Below are positions 42,695-50,249 of a stretch of DNA of 64,000 nucleotides, piece after piece (the first letter of the stretch is position 1; each line of letters begins with the position of its first letter). The notes below the pieces were generated by a model. That model ran no database searches, was not told where the DNA came from, and worked only from the letters and a program-made list of their open reading frames with translations. The stretch comes from Candidatus Hydrogenedentota bacterium (GTDB lineage Bacteria; Hydrogenedentota; Hydrogenedentia; Hydrogenedentales; SLHB01): assembly GCA_045863295.1 (NCBI GenBank), contig BTWA01000032.1:1-64000 (forward strand), given 5' to 3'. The position numbers were made by a program, and so were the translations under genes.

Positions 42695-43096
42695 AATCAC
42701 TCCTTTACCCCGATTGTATTCACGGTCAAGGACATTTCCTGTCATGGTGCGCGTTGTCACTTTACTAACTAATTTTGCCTGTTCGTTACAATGATTGAAG
42801 CGATATCACGACTGTGTGTACGACGAATCACACTGAACGTGGTTATTACCTTGCGGAATATTGACCCATACTGTCACAATGCCAGCCAACGTATCCTTTC
42901 AAATCGGGGATTGTGGGGGTATGCGCCGAGGCAACGTGCGGATTCTGGGTGTCATGCTCTCCATTGGCCCGGGAGTCTGCCTGAACTCGCCGGAAACAAA
43001 TCGGCTAGCTTTCATCCCCGGGGGTGGACGGAAGCGGCTACTGATAGTGTTCAGAATCTTCCGAATGCAATCACGCCGCGACGGGAACTGATCTCG

Positions 43097-46000
43097 ATGC
43101 TGGTTTTGAATCTCATACAGAATGTCGCCTTGCTGGTCACGCTCGTTGTCGTCCATCCACTTCTGGCCCGGCGCTTTCGCATACGGTATCCATGGTTTCA
43201 CATACTTTCCGGTTTGCTTTTTGGCGGCGTCTGCGTGATCGGCATGATGGCGCCCGTGCAAATCGCACCGGGCGTCATATTTGACGGACGTTCCATCGTA
43301 CTGAGCGTGGCAGGATTGTTTGGCGGCCCCATCGTTGCGTTGGTTGCCGCGATTGTCAGTGGCTCATATCGTCTGTACATTGGCGGCAGCGGCGCTATTC
43401 CCGGCATCGTGGTCATCGTGGAAGCAACCACGATAGGTCTCGCGTTTAACTACCTGGGCCGACGTGACTCGAAATTCATGTCTCTGTTTTGGTTTTGGGT
43501 GTTGGGTCTTGTCGTGCATGCGGCCATGATCTTTACATTGTTGCTGATGCTGGGCGACCAGCTTGGACCGAACCCAATCCTGAATCTCGGCGCACCCATC
43601 CTCGTTCTCTATCCGATCGCAACCATGGTTATTTGCCGGATTCTCCAGGATTACGAGGAGCGCCTGGAGATTGAGGAAAACCTCAAACAAAGTCAGGAAA
43701 AGTACCGCATTCTTGTGGAAAATGCCGCCGAGGGCATCGTGGTCGTTCAGGACGCCCACATCGTATTTGCGAACGCCGCGTTGGCGACCATTGTTGGTTA
43801 CACGCAGGATGAACTGCTTGTCAGGCCATTCGTCGATTTTGCACACCCCGATGATCGCCGGATGCTGATCGAGCGGCATCAGCTCCGGCTGGAAGGAAAA
43901 GAATTTCCCTCAATAGGCGAGTTGCGAGTCATTCACAAGTCAGGGGCTGTACGCTGGGTCGAGTTGAACGCGGTTCGAATTGAATGGAATTCACGGGTCG
44001 CCGTGCTCAACTTCATCACTGATATTACCAACCGGAAGAGCGCGGAAAAGGCGCTTGCCGAGAGCGGCATTCGCTACAAGTCGGTAGTCGACGCATTGGG
44101 CAGTGCTGTTCTGGTCCACGCTTCCGATGGAACCATCATCGAGTGCAACGCCGCCGCGGAACAGGTACTCGGCATCTCACGAGGTCAAATCTTGGGGTCT
44201 GGCCCGCAGACCTCGGAATGGCCGGCCATATTTGAAGACGGTTCTCCATTTCCCGTGGAAGAATATCCCGTCGTAATCACCCAGCGCACAGGCATTGCGC
44301 AGCACGGCGTCGTTATGGGGTTGACCCGGCCCGACGGCAAACAGATTTGGATCATCATCAATACAGTTCCCTTGTCAGGGCCCAACAGGGACAAACCATT
44401 CGCCGTGGTTTCCAGCCTTGTCGACATTACCGAGTTAAAACGTTTATCGGAAGCGCTCGCTCGGAGCAACGACGAACTGGAATTTATGATCCAGGCATTG
44501 CCCGACCTGCTGTTCCATATGTCCGGCGACGGTACAATTAAGGATTTCCGCGCGCAAGACCCTGCGACGCTTTATCTTCCGCCGGACGAATTTATCGGGC
44601 GAAAGCTGCAAGATGTCCTGCCACCGGATGCCGCCAAAGCGATCTCCGAAGGTCTTGCGGAATTGTACCGAGGCGACAAGATTGTCTCCGTAACGTACAA
44701 GTTGCCCATGCCCAACGGCGACCACTGGTTTGAAGCCCGTTTCAACACGCTTTCGAGTTCCGACGAAGTAGTCGCCCTCGTTCGTAACATTACCGATCGC
44801 AAGCGTGTTGAGGATGCGCTGCTGGAAAACCAGGCGTATCTCGCCGCATTCATTAAACATGCGCCGGCGGCGGTGGCCATGATGGATACGGAATTGCGCT
44901 ATATCGCCTGTTCCGCCCGCTGGATGTCGGACTATGGGATCGAAGGCCGGGATATCGTGGGTATTTCACATTACGAAGTTTTTCCAGAGATTCCTGCACG
45001 GTGGAAGGAAATCCACCGACGTTGCCTCCAGGGGTCCATCGAGCGTTGCGAAGAAGATCCGTTCGCACGAAGTGACGGAACTATTCAGTGGCTGAGTTGG
45101 GAAGTACATCCCTGGTATACAATCGATGGCCGTATCGGCGGATTGATGATGTTCACGCAAGACATCACGCAAAGCCGCCAGGCCGATGAACGGCTCCGGC
45201 ATGAAAGAGAACGTTTCGCGGCGATTATCGAGGCCACCAACATTGGCACGTGGGAATGGAACGTTCAGACGGGCGATGCGATATTCAATGAACGGTGGGC
45301 CACCATTGGGGGATATACGCTGGAGGAATTGGCTCCTCACAGCATCCAAACCTGGATTGATCTCGCGCATCCCGATGACCTTGCCCATTCCATTGATCTT
45401 ATTTCGAAGCACTTCAGCGGGGAGATCCCGTACTACGATTGCGAATGCAGGATGCGGCACAAAGACGGATCCTGGGTGTGGGTCCACGACCGGGGCAAAG
45501 TTACGGAGTGGGGTAGCGACGGTTCTCCGCACGTTATGGCCGGCACGCATACCGACATAACCGGGCGAAAGCAGGCCGACGAGGCACTGAGAGAACTCAC
45601 GGAACGGTTCAAGAAAATCGCGGCACAGGTTCCGGGAGTCGTGTATCAATACAAACTCAGGCAGGACGGGACTTCGTGTTTTCCCTATGCGAGCGAAGGA
45701 ATCCGTTCCATTTATCGCGTCGATCCCGACGACGTCCGGGAGGACGCCAGTGCGGTATTCGAAGTGCTTCATCCCGAGGACTACGACGGCATTGTCGAAT
45801 CCATACAGGTATCCGCCAGAAACATGACAACCTGGCGGCATGAATACCGGGTGAAGTTTCCCGATGGCGATGTGCGCTGGTTGTACGGAAACGCCATACC
45901 GCAGGTAGACACGGACGGCGCAGTGCTATGGCACGGATTTATCTCCGATATTACCGAACAACGCCGGCTGCGAGACGAGACAGAAGCGTTGCAAGGCCAG

Positions 46001-47137
46001 TTGCTGCAGGCGCAGAAAATGGAGTCTGTTGGAAGGCTTGCCGGCGGGGTCGCGCATGATTTCAACAACATGCTGGGCGTAATTCTTGGACACACCGAAA
46101 TTGCCCTGATCAATACACGCAAGGACAACCCCATTCACCACGACCTTGCGGAGATTCAACGCGCAGCACAACGATCGGCTGACCTTACCCGGCAACTGCT
46201 GGCTTTCGCCCGGCGCCAAACCGTGAACCCCCAACCGCTCGACCTGAATGAAACCGTGGGGGGCATGTTGAAAATGCTGGGAAGGCTCACCGGCGAAGCG
46301 ATCGAGCTTCTGTGGCTGCCTGGACCGTCGTTGTGGCGTGTGAAGATAGACCCGTCCCAAGTGGATCAGATTCTCACGAATCTAATCATAAACGCCAGGG
46401 ACGCCGTTAAGGGTTCCGGCCGTGTCTCTATCCAAACCGAGAATGCCCACGTGCATGAATCTGACGGCTCCAGCGAACTGCAGGCCGTACCCGGCGAGTA
46501 TGTGTTGTTGTCCGTCAGCGATAACGGGTGCGGCATGACCAAGGAAGTTCTCGCCAAGGTTTTCGAGCCGTTTTTCACCACCAAACCGGTCGGCGAGGGT
46601 ACTGGACTTGGATTGTCCACCGTATATGGCATTGTGAAACAAAACGACGGCTTCATCCACGTCGACAGTGAATGGGGCGGGGGTTCTGTGTTCAAGATCT
46701 ACTTCCCGCGCCATACTCAAGAAGTCATTGAAGACAAGAGCATTATCGCGGCCCGTTCGGCGAAACGAGGCACCGAAACTATTCTTCTGGTCGAAGACGA
46801 AGTGTCCATTCTCGAACTGAGCAAGCGTATACTGGAAAGTCTGGGATATACCGTGATGGCCGCCTCCAGCCCCGGGGAAGCCATTCAGGTGTGCAGCCGA
46901 TTCGAGGGGGTCATTCATTTGCTGGTAACCGATGTCGTGATGCCCGAGATGAACGGCCGGCAACTGGCCTCAAAATTGAACGAAATGCGGCCCGGTATGA
47001 AGTGCCTTTTCATGTCCGGTTACACCGCGGATGTGATCGCCGATCACGGGGTGCTGGACAAGGATGTGCGATTTATTCAAAAGCCCTTTTCCATCGCCGA
47101 TCTTGCAGTCAAGGTGCGCGAGGCCATGGAAGAATGA
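43097..47137 (+). CDS. Hybrid sensor histidine kinase: 5TM-LYT-type input, six PAS/PAC, HisKA, HATPase, REC
   Basis: GVIFDGRS..GLFGGP TM region, six segments ending (D/N)IT, GGVAHDFNN, NARDA, GTGLGL, LLVEDE...DVVMP...KPF. Confidence 0.93.
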   Translation: MLVLNLIQNVALLVTLVVVHPLLARRFRIRYPWFHILSGLLFGGVCVIGMMAPVQIAPGVIFDGRSIVLSVAGLFGGPIVALVAAIVSGSYRLYIGGSGAIPGIVVIVEATTIGLAFNYLGRRDSKFMSLFWFWVLGLVVHAAMIFTLLLMLGDQLGPNPILNLGAPILVLYPIATMVICRILQDYEERLEIEENLKQSQEKYRILVENAAEGIVVVQDAHIVFANAALATIVGYTQDELLVRPFVDFAHPDDRRMLIERHQLRLEGKEFPSIGELRVIHKSGAVRWVELNAVRIEWNSRVAVLNFITDITNRKSAEKALAESGIRYKSVVDALGSAVLVHASDGTIIECNAAAEQVLGISRGQILGSGPQTSEWPAIFEDGSPFPVEEYPVVITQRTGIAQHGVVMGLTRPDGKQIWIIINTVPLSGPNRDKPFAVVSSLVDITELKRLSEALARSNDELEFMIQALPDLLFHMSGDGTIKDFRAQDPATLYLPPDEFIGRKLQDVLPPDAAKAISEGLAELYRGDKIVSVTYKLPMPNGDHWFEARFNTLSSSDEVVALVRNITDRKRVEDALLENQAYLAAFIKHAPAAVAMMDTELRYIACSARWMSDYGIEGRDIVGISHYEVFPEIPARWKEIHRRCLQGSIERCEEDPFARSDGTIQWLSWEVHPWYTIDGRIGGLMMFTQDITQSRQADERLRHERERFAAIIEATNIGTWEWNVQTGDAIFNERWATIGGYTLEELAPHSIQTWIDLAHPDDLAHSIDLISKHFSGEIPYYDCECRMRHKDGSWVWVHDRGKVTEWGSDGSPHVMAGTHTDITGRKQADEALRELTERFKKIAAQVPGVVYQYKLRQDGTSCFPYASEGIRSIYRVDPDDVREDASAVFEVLHPEDYDGIVESIQVSARNMTTWRHEYRVKFPDGDVRWLYGNAIPQVDTDGAVLWHGFISDITEQRRLRDETEALQGQLLQAQKMESVGRLAGGVAHDFNNMLGVILGHTEIALINTRKDNPIHHDLAEIQRAAQRSADLTRQLLAFARRQTVNPQPLDLNETVGGMLKMLGRLTGEAIELLWLPGPSLWRVKIDPSQVDQILTNLIINARDAVKGSGRVSIQTENAHVHESDGSSELQAVPGEYVLLSVSDNGCGMTKEVLAKVFEPFFTTKPVGEGTGLGLSTVYGIVKQNDGFIHVDSEWGGGSVFKIYFPRHTQEVIEDKSIIAARSAKRGTETILLVEDEVSILELSKRILESLGYTVMAASSPGEAIQVCSRFEGVIHLLVTDVVMPEMNGRQLASKLNEMRPGMKCLFMSGYTADVIADHGVLDKDVRFIQKPFSIADLAVKVREAMEE

Positions 47138-47162
47138 ACCGACGGAGGGATTGGAGTGGCAA

Positions 47163-48455
47163 CTATCGCTCGGGCAGTTCGAAATAGGCATGCCAGAGTT
47201 CGGCTTCTTGTGTGCTCTGGCCGGATTCATCTTTCAGATACTTGACGCTGAGCAGATGTACGGTATCTCCGGCGTCCTCACCTCCAAAGCGCGCCGGACA
47301 TAACGCATGCACCACATACGCTTCCAGGTTGGCCGAATTCGACACAGTCCATTCCCGCAACGCCTTGAAGGTCGACGTGTCCAACTGCCAGAGATGTAAG
47401 TCTCCTGCGACCGGGCGGCCAATCAAGAACATGCGGCCATCGCCGGCCATAAGCATGCGCGAAAGACCGGGGTTGAGACCCGTCTCATGCGAATCGACCG
47501 CGAGGTTCGGCGCAATATGTGCGATGTAATGCGGCGTTCCCGGCGTTTTCAAAAGTTCCTCGTGCGATGCCGCGCTGGCGTGTGCATACGACACGTAGGC
47601 GCCGCCGTTGCCATCGGGGATCATATCCTGCAATGCCGTGCGCCCGTCCAAAGGCATAAGCCAACCGATATTCTTCCAATTGCCCACGGTCAGATCCTCG
47701 CACGACGCCAGCCGGACATGACGCCAGGAATATTTAGTGCCTTCGCCGTCCGAGTGATCAGGGTCGTATAACGCGGAATTCAACACCGCAATTGCCCGTT
47801 TGCCCGTTAGCAGAATGCCTTCGTATCCGTAGCGGCCTTCCGGCGTCTCCATGCGGCTCGTGTGCCACGTTCCATCGGCTGCATCGAAGAACGCGGCGAT
47901 GATCGCGTTGGGCTTTCCATACTGCATTTCAGCGGTTTCGGCATACAACGTCAGAAAATTGCCTTCCGGGCTAATCGCCGCGCCCATATAGGCATTGGTA
48001 CCGGTGTGCACTTCCTCTATAGACGAAAAATCGACCGGTTCTTTCGTGCGGTTAATGTGCACGTTTGCGTAATCGGTTGACCCCGTGATCCACACGCGTT
48101 TGTCCGGTCCCGCAAGCATCATGTAGGGGGGATAGGGGAGCGTGCCTACTTCGTTCCAGGTTCCATTGTCCTCACGGCGATAAAACGCCCCGGGATGCGA
48201 ATACGGCCAGTCCGGTTTTTCCGGGTTGGGATTACGAATCGTGGCGCATGCGTAAAGGCGACCGTCGATTTTAAGTAGGCGGTTGCTGTGCCAACCGTGA
48301 ATCGTTCCGGAAAATACTCTCGCAGCGACGAGTTCCGCTTTTCCTTCAACGATTGAGTGTGTGGCATCTTGGGCATCCGCATTGAACATAGCCACCAAGG
48401 CCAAGACCACGTTGAGTAAGGCAAGGTGCCACTGAATCGAGTTAGTCTTTGTCAC
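47163..48455 (-). CDS. Hypothetical secreted protein (possibly beta-propeller)
   Basis: GTG at 48455 overlaps the upstream gene. Signal peptide ...LALVAMFNADA|Q and a beta-rich sequence with DxxTW turns. Confidence 0.6.
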   Translation of the reverse strand: MTKTNSIQWHLALLNVVLALVAMFNADAQDATHSIVEGKAELVAARVFSGTIHGWHSNRLLKIDGRLYACATIRNPNPEKPDWPYSHPGAFYRREDNGTWNEVGTLPYPPYMMLAGPDKRVWITGSTDYANVHINRTKEPVDFSSIEEVHTGTNAYMGAAISPEGNFLTLYAETAEMQYGKPNAIIAAFFDAADGTWHTSRMETPEGRYGYEGILLTGKRAIAVLNSALYDPDHSDGEGTKYSWRHVRLASCEDLTVGNWKNIGWLMPLDGRTALQDMIPDGNGGAYVSYAHASAASHEELLKTPGTPHYIAHIAPNLAVDSHETGLNPGLSRMLMAGDGRMFLIGRPVAGDLHLWQLDTSTFKALREWTVSNSANLEAYVVHALCPARFGGEDAGDTVHLLSVKYLKDESGQSTQEAELWHAYFELPER

Positions 48456-48765
48456 GGGATTCCAATTCCTTCCGAAGCCGCTCCAATTCGTGCGCCACTT
48501 TGCCGAGTTCCAGGCGCGTCCGCCTGTTTTCTTTGGCCATTCCCAGCAGGTACCAGATTGCGAATACAAGTATTCCCGCTTTCAGAAGAAGTACCGGAAG
48601 GCTAAGCGCCCCAATTAATACCCACTCCCATCCTCCAGGCATTTCTGACAAAGCATACGCAGGCAGTCTCAACGAACGCATTTGCAGGAGCCCTGGTGAT
48701 CTCTGCATTTCAGCCCTACACGTAGATTCACCCACGTGACCTCGTGCCTTGTGCGTGGTTTTCAA
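48442..48765 (-). CDS. Small TM plus coiled-coil protein, paralog C
   Basis: MPGGWEWVLIG, TM segment, ENRRTRLELGKVAHELERLRK. Start is uncertain (48765, 48708, 48681 or 48642). Confidence 0.7.
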   Translation of the reverse strand: MKTTHKARGHVGESTCRAEMQRSPGLLQMRSLRLPAYALSEMPGGWEWVLIGALSLPVLLLKAGILVFAIWYLLGMAKENRRTRLELGKVAHELERLRKELESRDKD

Positions 48766-49004
48766 TCCTCGTCTCGCTTCCTCATCGCTTCCACTTCATG
48801 CGCGAGTTTGCTGACTTCAATCCTGAGCCGCCGGCGCTCTTTGTCGCCGTTGACAAAGTATCGGATAACCATGAACAAAACCGCCAAGGGAATCGCCAGA
48901 ATGCACAGGATTACGATGATTTCAAAACCGCCCGGCAACGTAAACATCGCATAACGGGGAATACTGCTCCTGTGCCACGTACGATCGCATTCCTGGTGTA
49001 CCAT
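48762..49004 (-). CDS. Small TM plus coiled-coil protein, paralog B
   Basis: GAGGAG RBS, LPGGFEIIVIL, TM segment, ERRRLRIEVSKLAHEVEAMRK. Confidence 0.75.
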   Translation of the reverse strand: MVHQECDRTWHRSSIPRYAMFTLPGGFEIIVILCILAIPLAVLFMVIRYFVNGDKERRRLRIEVSKLAHEVEAMRKRDED

Positions 49005-49055
49005 ACGTCATCTCCTCGAATGTAGTGCGCCACAGTGCGTACGGTCCGGCGAGCG

Positions 49056-49253
49056 TCAATTGCCCTGCTTCTTGCGCAGTAATTCCAACTCGCTGCCAAT
49101 TTTGCCTACCTCAAGTCGAAGCAACCGCTGCTCATCCGATCGCCGTCTAAGATATCTCGCCAATCCCACTATCGCGCGCACTACCGCGTACGCGATCAAG
49201 ATCAAGATAAGGATCGGCACAATGGCAACTACGCTGTATCCAGAAGGCATCAC
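49056..49253 (-). CDS. Small TM plus coiled-coil protein, paralog A
   Basis: GTGA overlap with the HTH gene, MPSGY, TM segment, EQRLLRLEVGKIGSELELLRK. Confidence 0.75.
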   Translation of the reverse strand: MMPSGYSVVAIVPILILILIAYAVVRAIVGLARYLRRRSDEQRLLRLEVGKIGSELELLRKKQGN

Positions 49254-49447
49254 CCTTCCCCTCCATTTCCGTTCGGATGCACCTTTTTCGCCTCAAGCCA
49301 CGCGTCCACATCGGCCCGGTCGAACTTGATATTCTTGGCACTGATCCGGATGTAGGGCGGACAATCCCCCGAAGCGATGTACTTGTAGATGGTCCGCTTC
49401 GAATCACCCAAGTAGGCCGCCAAATCCTCGATGGACATCAACTGCAT
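49250..49447 (-). CDS. Excisionase/BldC-like helix-turn-helix (HTH_17) DNA-binding protein
   Basis: LMSIEDLAAYLGDSKRTIYKYIASGDCP..RI...IKFDRADVDAWLE. Start is 49447 or 49462. Confidence 0.88.
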   Translation of the reverse strand: MQLMSIEDLAAYLGDSKRTIYKYIASGDCPPYIRISAKNIKFDRADVDAWLEAKKVHPNGNGGEG

Positions 49448-49470
49448 ATTCGATTCCCGCATTTCATCGG

Positions 49471-49510
49471 TATCATTATGTCGCAATATGTCATAATATG
49501 CAATGATATT
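49471..49510 (-). promoter_or_regulatory. Promoter overlaid by four 10-bp-period direct repeats
   Basis: + strand TATCATTATG/TCGCAATATG/TCATAATATG/CAATGATATT. Minus strand TTGCAT (49503-49498), 17 bp, CATAAT (49480-49475). Confidence 0.7.
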
Positions 49511-49673
49511 CTTTACCGGCTTCACCAGGGTAGGCTGAAAAATACGCTGTCCAATGCGTCAACACGCACGGAACGCAGACGACTTCAAAGTGTAGAATAG
49601 GCAAAATCCGGCATGCTGCCGCCGGCGAATGGGCTCCGAGGCTGTCGCCATTTCACGGCGAGGAGGGGTTTAA

Positions 49674-50249
49674 ATGGGGCGTCGTATCGCGTACGCATTG
49701 GTTGTTGTCGGGCTTGTACTTGCGCTCGGGTGTTTTAAGAAGGTCCCGCGAGAAAAGCTTCAGCCGTTGTTTGGCGATGATGCCGGCGGCGCCGTATCCG
49801 GCGACTTCCCAGTCTTTGAAGAAGGGGGATCCCTGAAATTGACCGTGCAAGGTGCGATGCGGGAAATCCCCTTGAATGAGATCTACTATTGCAATACCGA
49901 AGGCGATTTCCCGGACTACATCGAGTTTTCCGGCGAGGGCACCTATTTCGAAGCGGTAAATGAAGCAAAACTGCCGGGTGACGACGAAGATGACTGGAGC
50001 GCGCCCCATGCTTCGATTGTCTCGAAGGCGTTGCCCATAAAATCCATTAATGACAGACCCATGGAAATGACTATCCCTGGATTGGGGAAATATGCGGTAA
50101 CCGGTGGAACCATCACCATGACACGGAATCAAGGGGGAATGGAGGGGGTGGTCTGGTGGGAAGGGACCATCAACGTCATTTGCGATACGTCCACCGGCCC
50201 CGCCACGGCTCCCGGCACTTTTGCCTTTGGCATGGTGCCGGTCTGGTAG
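49674..50249 (+). CDS. Hypothetical lipoprotein
   Basis: GAGGAGG RBS and MGRR..LVLALG-C lipobox. Confidence 0.7.
   Translation: MGRRIAYALVVVGLVLALGCFKKVPREKLQPLFGDDAGGAVSGDFPVFEEGGSLKLTVQGAMREIPLNEIYYCNTEGDFPDYIEFSGEGTYFEAVNEAKLPGDDEDDWSAPHASIVSKALPIKSINDRPMEMTIPGLGKYAVTGGTITMTRNQGGMEGVVWWEGTINVICDTSTGPATAPGTFAFGMVPVW

Follow-up and report, generated by a model that had tools for sequence, protein, structure and literature searches.

Introduction

BldC of Streptomyces is a stand-alone winged-helix protein of about 65 residues that binds DNA head-to-tail, two to four protomers lining up on direct repeats of the form AATTXXXX(C) (PMC5859096). Excisionases such as GIsul2 Xis (8c3t), Pukovnik Xis (4j2n) and RdfS (8dgl) share a closely related fold and the HTH_17/TIGR01764 family, LapA (PF06305) and YhcB (DUF1043) are small proteins with an N-terminal transmembrane helix followed by a cytoplasmic coiled coil, and mycobacterial ClpC2 is reported (PMC10030653) to be a dimer that binds a palindromic operator through its Clp_N-like domain itself and represses its own promoter. 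Here we analyse a minus-strand operon in a 64,000-nt stretch of a Candidatus Hydrogenedentota genome (contig BTWA01000032.1, positions 1 to 64,000; the window), which encodes a short helix-turn-helix protein of the HTH_17 family (the HTH), three paralogous small membrane proteins (the microproteins) and a secreted protein. We find that the HTH and the microproteins form a real and unnamed pair that recurs in certain Planctomycetota and a handful of Hydrogenedentota behind a conserved promoter-like operator, and that the secreted protein is a passenger of the operon, outside the module.

Compared with BldC, the window HTH is likewise a stand-alone winged helix of ~65 residues that lacks an effector or dimerisation domain, its model resembles BldC in fold (template modelling (TM) score 0.64-0.77 to 6ama and 6amk), and its presumed target, tandem direct repeats about one helical turn apart, is of the kind described for BldC (PMC5859096). 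BldC is nevertheless absent from the PDB sequence matches of the HTH at an expectation value (E) ≤1, so that the two are likened by fold only. Moreover, where BldC recognises AATTXXXX(C), the presumed site of the HTH is built of CATAWT hexamers phased by exactly 10 bp; the HTH seems to serve its own promoter alone, its gene is coupled to those of membrane microproteins, and in 17 of 41 loci it is fused to Clp_N. The excisionases are the closest relatives of the HTH in both sequence and fold, but the HTH has no integrase or mobile element nearby and occupies a conserved chromosomal neighbourhood in Planctomycetota. The microproteins share with LapA and YhcB their small size and predicted architecture, together with weak LapA_dom matches and a few database labels, but they stay below the curated cut-offs, their tail motif and an N-terminal PG-x-x-E are specific to the family, and their genomic partner is an HTH gene in place of lapB or envelope genes. 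ClpC2 bears comparison with the Clp_N-fused variant of the HTH, in which a Clp_N-type domain would likewise sit in a self-repressing protein; in that variant, however, a separate HTH_17 precedes Clp_N and the operator is one of direct repeats, and the window HTH has no Clp_N. ClpC2 was ruled out as a direct analogue of the HTH, since its DNA binding sits in the Clp_N-like domain (PMC10030653).

Results

Linkage of the HTH and the microproteins

An earlier note on this DNA, made by a model from the sequence alone, had proposed that the HTH, the microproteins and the secreted protein form one system and that a profile of the three microprotein tails should find homologues next to HTH_17 genes. 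A profile of the three copies does find the family in public proteins, and a scan of one genome per species yielded 43 microprotein loci, three labelled Hydrogenedentota, from the same three genomes that a separate genome search returned, and 40 assigned to Planctomycetota lineages (Pirellulales, Phycisphaerae, Sedimentisphaerales and Anaerohalosphaeraceae; all labels as deposited). An HTH gene lies directly upstream of the microprotein in 41 of these 43 loci, as the proposed linkage predicts; of the two exceptions, L066 begins at a contig edge and L036 truly lacks the HTH. Sampled reciprocally, 20 HTH matches from the family of a Planctomycetota carrier were followed by a microprotein in 17 cases; eight of these 20 loci were already in the first set, and nine of the 12 new ones carried a microprotein. 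The other HTH-bearing genomes of the window's own family (3/3) also carry one or two microproteins. From the HTH stop codon to the first microprotein residue in the alignment the median distance is 9 nt; 38 of 45 distances do not exceed 60 nt, and 13 of 45 are exactly -4. A single locus per genome was found in the window's own genome and in 4/4 Planctomycetota genomes.

The triplication of the microprotein that the earlier note emphasised is borne out in this genome but is not general, as copy number is one in 22, two in 14 and three in seven of the 43 loci. On these sequence comparisons, the conserved unit is the HTH plus one to three microproteins. A quick maximum-likelihood tree (IQ-TREE) of 73 members, from which one 30-aa fragment (L052 copy 1) and four exact duplicates had been dropped, splits the microproteins into two clades (Shimodaira-Hasegawa-like approximate likelihood ratio test (SH-aLRT) 98). 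Clade I holds 17 of the 21 first copies of multi-copy arrays and clade II holds 19 of the 22 last copies as well as most single copies, and the Planctomycetota arrays thus combine two old paralogue types in a kept order. All three window copies belong to clade II, copy 1 grouping with the single copies of genomes G055 and G056 (SH-aLRT 89) and copies 2 and 3 sitting on long branches near Phycisphaerae sequences; given this shared placement in clade II, the three copies are probably a lineage-specific expansion. The microprotein at L036 (L036:3488-3787) is of clade I, with no HTH upstream though the contig continues for 3.4 kb and with convergent prmC still downstream.

The HTH regulator

The window HTH is a member of HTH_17 (PF12728; E 2.6e-13; score 50.5 bits, cut-off 27) and of TIGR01764 'excise' (34.8 bits, cut-off 28.8), and it matches PHROG 66 'excisionase and transcriptional regulator' at 1.7e-13. 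Its AF2 model (predicted local distance difference test (pLDDT) 84.4) is a winged helix with helices at residues 5-12, 16-25 and 43-53 plus two strands, which fold comparison places in the MerR/Xis class; the best fold matches are the GIsul2 excisionase 8c3t (TM score 0.68/0.75), RdfS (0.71-0.74), Pukovnik Xis, RacA, BldC and MerR N-domains. By sequence, the PDB matches are 8c3t (E 1e-5), 4j2n (3.5e-3) and 8dgl (0.09). With 65 aa and a single HTH_17 domain, the protein has the size and composition of the BldC type, and this short form is found in 24 of 41 loci.

The predominance of excisionases among these matches, in family profiles, sequence and fold alike, is what one would see if the HTH were a recombination directionality factor left behind by an integrated element, and we give this reading next to no credence. 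The partner integrase of a functional excisionase is missing: as the earlier note had pointed out, no integrase or phage family occurs among the 20 ORFs (open reading frames) that flank the operon in the window (~33-63.5 kb), nor did we find an integrase among 115 ORFs flanking the 43 loci, where a single DDE transposase fragment and a single weak HNH match were all that turned up (att sites were not searched for). The flanks are instead housekeeping genes (prmC, lysS and panB, and gcvTHP in the window), and synonymous sites are saturated between HTH proteins that remain 74-92% identical. That note's doubt that the HTH still functions as an excisionase therefore stands. The antiterminator AlpA of P. 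aeruginosa was also rejected as a model; it is described (PMC9371919) as a larger Q-like protein with HTH contacts at 128-142 and a single binding element, and is unrelated to the Pfam 'Phage_AlpA' match.

The window HTH is 74-92% identical to 41 other distinct HTH sequences, which span phyla; the 42 have 29 invariant columns and a mean column identity of 85%. At the codon level (n=56), the proportion of nonsynonymous differences (pN) is 0.03-0.13 against 0.69-0.98 for synonymous ones (pS), same-family genomes included, giving a pN/pS of ~0.05; because synonymous sites are saturated while pN is low, this conservation is not the result of recent transfer. An amino-acid identity of ~85% at saturated synonymous sites is unusual for a 65-residue accessory protein and suggests that nearly every residue of the HTH is engaged, be it with DNA, with itself or with a partner.

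In the 17 fused loci the HTH ORF runs on for ~170 residues, and Clp_N scored above its cut-off in all four long forms tested. The fused form consists of the same ultra-conserved HTH_17 followed by a double Clp_N repeat (L032:3258-3971, L045:2717-3376, L053:3127-3828, L067:3197-3868 and 13 further loci). The HTH_17-Clp_N architecture accounts for 469 clusters in the protein collection, under generic names only ('excisionase family DNA binding protein', 'helix-turn-helix' and 'Clp protease N-terminal domain-containing').

A candidate operator

The promoter that the earlier note had placed at 49471-49510 coincides with a conserved promoter-like operator upstream of the HTH. In the window, a -35-like TTGCAT (49498-49503) is followed after 17 nt by a -10-like CATAAT (49475-49480), and three CATAWT hexamers, at -53, -43 and -33 from the ATG and exactly 10 bp apart, span 49475-49500. 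The same layout recurs in 42 distinct upstream regions, with TTGCAT at ~-56 and CATAWT at -53, -43, -33 and often -23, so that the repeats overlap a TTGCAT-N17-(C/T)ATAWT promoter-like element. Of 57 distances between neighbouring hexamers, 43 are 10 bp, 13 are 20 bp and one is 23 bp. The triple repeat is unique in the 6.3-Mb genome even when one mismatch is allowed, and the reversed control gave none. By analogy with BldC, a protein of this fold that binds head-to-tail would be expected to use direct repeats that overlap the promoter and recur at every helical turn.

The microprotein family

The tail motif that the earlier note had quoted, E-x-R-x-x-R-[LI]-E-[VL]-[GS]-K-[ILV]-[AG]-[HS]-E-[LV]-E-x-[LM]-R-K, is correct: the aligned cores of the three copies share 15 invariant columns, including P2, G4, E40, R42, R45, E47, K50, E54, E56, R59 and K60, and one hydrophobic stretch. 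In the window's own genome the three-copy profile finds these three proteins alone (E 4e-29 to 5e-31; next best 0.016), and elsewhere, in an exhaustive search, 187 representative proteins at E≤1e-3, 12 of them at ≤1e-10, the best 150 of the 187 being all 49-124 aa long. A word-indexed search with the three window copies returned only the copies themselves (3 of 49 candidates), and with a 43-sequence alignment it returned 1,049 clusters at E≤1e-5. Among the 120 of these matches that were listed, 12 are named, six as 'hypothetical' or 'uncharacterized' and six with names that conflict (PulG, TadB, YqiK, YhcB twice and LapA family).

The earlier note had not recognised the family, and indeed no Pfam or NCBIfam cut-off is reached (0/43 members for Pfam). 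DUF7237 (PF23884) comes nearest to its cut-off (23.8 and 22.9 bits against 27; 2/40 members at E≤1e-3 and 4/43 at E≤0.01), with no match from the window microproteins; PHROGs and PADLOC hold no match for the microproteins or the secreted protein; and in the ESM Atlas microprotein 3 meets only unnamed clusters (0.82-0.85). The coding status assumed in that note is supported by purifying selection in all 14 orthologous pairs whose synonymous sites are unsaturated (ratio of nonsynonymous to synonymous substitution rates (dN/dS) 0.10-0.53), and, on this evidence from substitution patterns, the microproteins are genuine genes of an unnamed family. Two 'long' members of 117-124 aa (P0008 and P0041) open with a fragment of the tail motif, and L052:3779-3898 is a 30-aa remnant of a first copy; the long members look like a decayed upstream paralogue merged into the next gene call.

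Across 43 microprotein sequences, whose mean column identity is 29%, four tail residues never vary (E40, R45, K50 and E54) and two more hardly do (E47 and R59). Lysine and arginine are richer after the transmembrane helix than before it in 69 of 73 members (median 5 versus 0), and the proteins are therefore predicted to be oriented N-out/C-in, with the tail in the cytoplasm, the same compartment as the HTH.

With this architecture of an N-terminal transmembrane helix and a short cytoplasmic coiled coil, the microproteins could instead be the output of the module, acting in the manner of LapA or YhcB on envelope or membrane machinery, while the HTH only sets transcription of the operon and never contacts them directly. 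LapA_dom (PF06305) is the commonest weak match of the family, found in 10 of 43 members, the best of them (E 4e-4, 20.6 bits) below the cut-off of 28 and the window copies at 11.5-12.7 bits. The source labels 'LapA family' or 'YhcB (DUF1043)' are attached to 3/120 listed members, the two ancient paralogue clades in kept gene order (17/21 first, 19/22 last) would fit a hetero-oligomeric effector, and the HTH stays conserved where microproteins are absent. We nonetheless regard this effector-only reading as rather unlikely: curated cut-offs are reached by 0/43 members, DUF1043 gives no match at E≤0.01 in the 43 members and appears solely as a source label on 2/120 listed proteins, no envelope-biogenesis gene is consistently linked to the module (the recurrent neighbour prmC being convergent), and the near-invariant charged residues of the tail, amid a drifting remainder, would go unexplained.

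Distribution and genomic context

At an HTH orthologue threshold of E≤1e-15, the module's regulator was found in 4/135 genomes of the window's phylum, all of one family, and, around a Planctomycetota carrier, in 1/301 evenly sampled genomes of the phylum (the carrier itself), 11/151 of the order and 23/101 of the family; many of the sampled genomes are incomplete metagenome assemblies, and these counts mean 'found', not absences elsewhere. The gene that comes after the module is a convergent prmC at 30 of 40 Planctomycetota loci. Beyond prmC there is often lysS or a gene for a PIG-L deacetylase, and several loci have panB upstream; this arrangement indicates a stable chromosomal position. At L047 the gene after the module (L047:4381-5403) is prfA (PCRF + RF-1 domains), in the same orientation and likewise in a Planctomycetota genome; taken with prmC at most loci, this puts the module next to release-factor genes. 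No two of the four Hydrogenedentota genomes have the same downstream gene: it is the beta-propeller gene in the window and, in the others, a membrane protein with a marginal exosortase match, a family-less ORF and an ABC ATPase.

Patchy distribution and changing contexts in the four Hydrogenedentota genomes are features that an addiction, toxin-antitoxin-like or defence module might have, in which the microproteins would be membrane-active toxins and the coupled HTH an autorepressing antitoxin or controller. The layout too recalls a type II system, with a small HTH gene first, a 4-nt overlap and operator repeats in the module's own promoter, and the HTH has a sub-threshold match to the HTH of the MADS defence system (38.7 bits against a cut-off of 80; PADLOC mad1 7e-11). 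Such a role is nonetheless improbable. Type II pairs carry a recognised toxin family and are multi-copy, mobile and fast-evolving, whereas here the microproteins match no PADLOC model, each genome has a single locus, and prmC synteny is kept in 30/40 Planctomycetota loci. Purifying selection on the HTH is extreme and its synonymous sites are saturated, in contrast to toxin-antitoxin and defence genes, which evolve fast; neither the HTH nor the microprotein was confirmed in viral contigs (0 of 152 and 0 of 449 pattern matches); and the highly charged tail is atypical of pore-forming small toxins.

Organisation of the operon in the window

All five ORFs of the minus-strand operon lie where the earlier note had placed them (Table 1), and the overlaps that it described are there. 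The stop codon TGA of the HTH overlaps the GTG start of microprotein 1 (GTGA), an ATG also begins one base into that stop, the TTG of microprotein 3 is overlapped by the stop of microprotein 2, and microprotein 3 overlaps the secreted protein by 14 nt, at a GTG (48455) that opens a signal-peptide-like N-terminus.

Table 1. Features of the module and its operon in the window
Feature	Position	Strand	Basis
Promoter-like operator	49475..49503	-	Conserved upstream layout across 42 distinct loci
HTH_17 protein, 65 aa, stand-alone winged helix, conserved regulator of the module	49250..49447	-	Profile, fold, conservation
Microprotein 1, 64-65 aa, PSG-Y N-terminus, one transmembrane helix, charged coiled-coil tail	49056..49253	-	Family profile E 3e-19
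Microprotein 2, 80 aa	48762..49004	-	Family profile E 1.7e-24
Microprotein 3, 107 aa from TTG at 48765	48442..48765	-	Family profile E 1e-22
Secreted beta-propeller protein, ~430 aa; non-conserved neighbour	47163..48455	-	AF2 fold, Foldseek

Several starts differ from those of the longest frames. The longest HTH ORF is 49250-49525, and comparison with relatives points to the ATG at 49447 as the conserved start, yielding the 65-aa protein; the longest ORF of the secreted protein is 468 aa (47163-48569). The starts of microproteins 2 and 3 are ambiguous: the ATG of microprotein 2 at 49004 has a GAGGAG 7 nt upstream, and the conserved cores run from internal ATGs at 48947 (61 aa, microprotein 2) and 48642 (66 aa, microprotein 3).

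The operon is flanked by a convergent hybrid sensor kinase of 1,448 aa (42791-47137, plus strand; 5TMR-LYT, several PAS, HisKA/HATPase and receiver domains) and by a divergent 191-aa ORF (49674-50249, plus strand) that matches no family significantly; the N-terminus of the latter is lipoprotein-like, with LALGC at the end of a hydrophobic stretch. The intergenic region that the operon shares with this lipoprotein-like gene also contains, ~100 bp upstream of the operator, a terminator-like hairpin and T-run (49608-49625, minus strand). The 20 flanking window ORFs are ordinary housekeeping genes, with photolyase, gcvT/H/P, lipoate ligase, amidase, TsaD and a PilT-like ATPase. Contigs from sludge, activated-sludge and bioreactor metagenomes of several studies (runs X2, X5, X10 and X18) match 47163-49700 at 99% identity or more. 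None of the runs listed as containing this DNA is recorded as RNA; two of these four runs are labelled RNA-Seq yet are 'probably DNA', and the matches, being contigs, show the presence of DNA only.

The secreted protein

The earlier note had included the secreted protein as cargo of the system, and this part of its proposal did not hold. The cargo gene is not a conserved companion of the module, whose downstream gene differs in every Hydrogenedentota genome and is prmC in 30/40 Planctomycetota loci, and its homologues (44-51% identity, in 4/40 other genomes searched) are not tied to the module either. In three relatives the homologue (L017:4252-5556, L018:6464-7759, L019:4427-5755) directly follows a gene for a secreted protein of 843-871 aa, and the profile found no HTH or microprotein within 11-12 kb; at the fourth homologue the contig ends 133 bases beyond the gene start. 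A regular-expression search for the tail in all four homologue loci found nothing, in agreement with the profile. The recurrent pairing with the 843-871-aa gene suggests that the two genes act together in glycan degradation and have nothing to do with the module, and the secreted protein is a passenger of the operon.

Although the secreted protein matches no Pfam or NCBIfam family, its AF2 model (pLDDT 78.6) consists of an N-terminal signal helix followed by an all-beta propeller. Foldseek places the PL42 L-rhamnose-alpha-1,4-D-glucuronate lyase 7esk first (E 8e-11, TM score 0.60), followed by GH145 enzymes (E 8e-11 to 5e-8 and TM score 0.53-0.63 for the PL42/GH145 matches overall), and the ESM Atlas lead is BNR_4. 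The modelled protein thus resembles the propellers of PL42/GH145, to which, at 10-13% identity, it is likened by fold alone, and a PL42/GH145-like, carbohydrate-active fold is probable.

Discussion

The earlier note thus holds in its operon, its unnamed family, the HTH linkage, the probable non-excisionase nature of the HTH and the promoter site, and it fails in its secreted cargo, whose homologues are unlinked. Built from a known fold and a known regulatory logic, the module has no description in the family libraries or in a narrow literature search (HTH_17 with Clp_N; BldC in Planctomycetes). As to its function, the reading that fits best, which we hold tentatively and at somewhat less than an even chance, is that the winged-helix protein regulates itself and that tails tethered to the membrane determine how active it is. 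An operator of the autorepressor type, a coupled partner with a near-invariant charged helix in the cytoplasm and a single locus per genome fit such a tail-controlled regulator best.

In this mechanism the module would be a self-contained, autoregulated unit of two parts. The first, the 65-aa protein of excisionase/BldC fold, would bind as a head-to-tail oligomer to the three to four CATAWT repeats phased by 10 bp and, as these cover its own -35 to -10 region, would repress its own operon. The second part would consist of one to three bitopic microproteins, translationally coupled and oriented N-out/C-in, each of which exposes a conserved charged coiled-coil tail of ~20 residues to the cytoplasm. 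The tails would act on the regulator, either by keeping it at the membrane or by altering the way it oligomerises, such that expression of the operon, along with any gene that by chance lies downstream, would follow a membrane or envelope condition; in the window genome that gene happens to encode the secreted PL42/GH145-like beta-propeller.

Several observations weigh against a tail-controlled regulator. One microprotein locus (L036) lacks the HTH, and three of the 20 reciprocally sampled HTH loci lack a microprotein: L072 and L076, which encode HTH-Clp_N, and L078, which encodes the short form. Moreover, the constraint on the HTH is independent of the microproteins, because the HTH is equally conserved in loci without them. 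The operator is open to similar reservations. Two-repeat near-matches occur elsewhere in the genome (30 versus 8 in the control, at ≤2 mismatches), and the HTH may have a wider regulon than its own promoter; the CATAWT pattern was defined after viewing the sequences, and the 42 promoters that display it are homologous, not independent. A generic sigma-70 scan called no promoter in 46900-49750, because TTGCAT matches TTGACA at 3/6 positions, and promoter function at 49475-49503 is therefore presumed. Finally, contact between the HTH and the tails is something that we infer throughout, and when the HTH (42-row alignment) was modelled together with residues 30-64 of microprotein 1, its tail (43-row alignment), two runs made without controls returned no answer (score 0.00), which counts neither for nor against such contact.

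A bolder extension of the tail-controlled regulator, which we consider doubtful as a whole, is a membrane-coupled transcription switch of an undescribed kind. Here the BldC/Xis-fold protein would form a short filament on the phased repeats, the ancient paralogous bitopic microproteins would act as a membrane sponge or tether that captures it through their invariant charged tails, and Clp_N, present in ~40% of loci, would make the switch responsive to signals of protein quality. Such a module would amount to a minimal membrane/proteostasis sensor peculiar to certain Planctomycetota, from which a few Hydrogenedentota would have received it by transfer.

Annotation routinely overlooks small membrane proteins or calls them 'hypothetical'; this analysis gives one family, of ~1,000 sequence clusters, a firm partner in the genome and a precise, testable candidate operator, in phyla that have almost no genetics. 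With four short genes and a 30-bp DNA site, a tail-controlled switch would be small enough for reconstitution. Should the tails prove not to control the regulator, the secreted protein would still have gained a probable carbohydrate-active fold and left the 'system'; if they do control it, the module would represent a very compact form of membrane-tethered control over a filament-forming factor of the BldC type.

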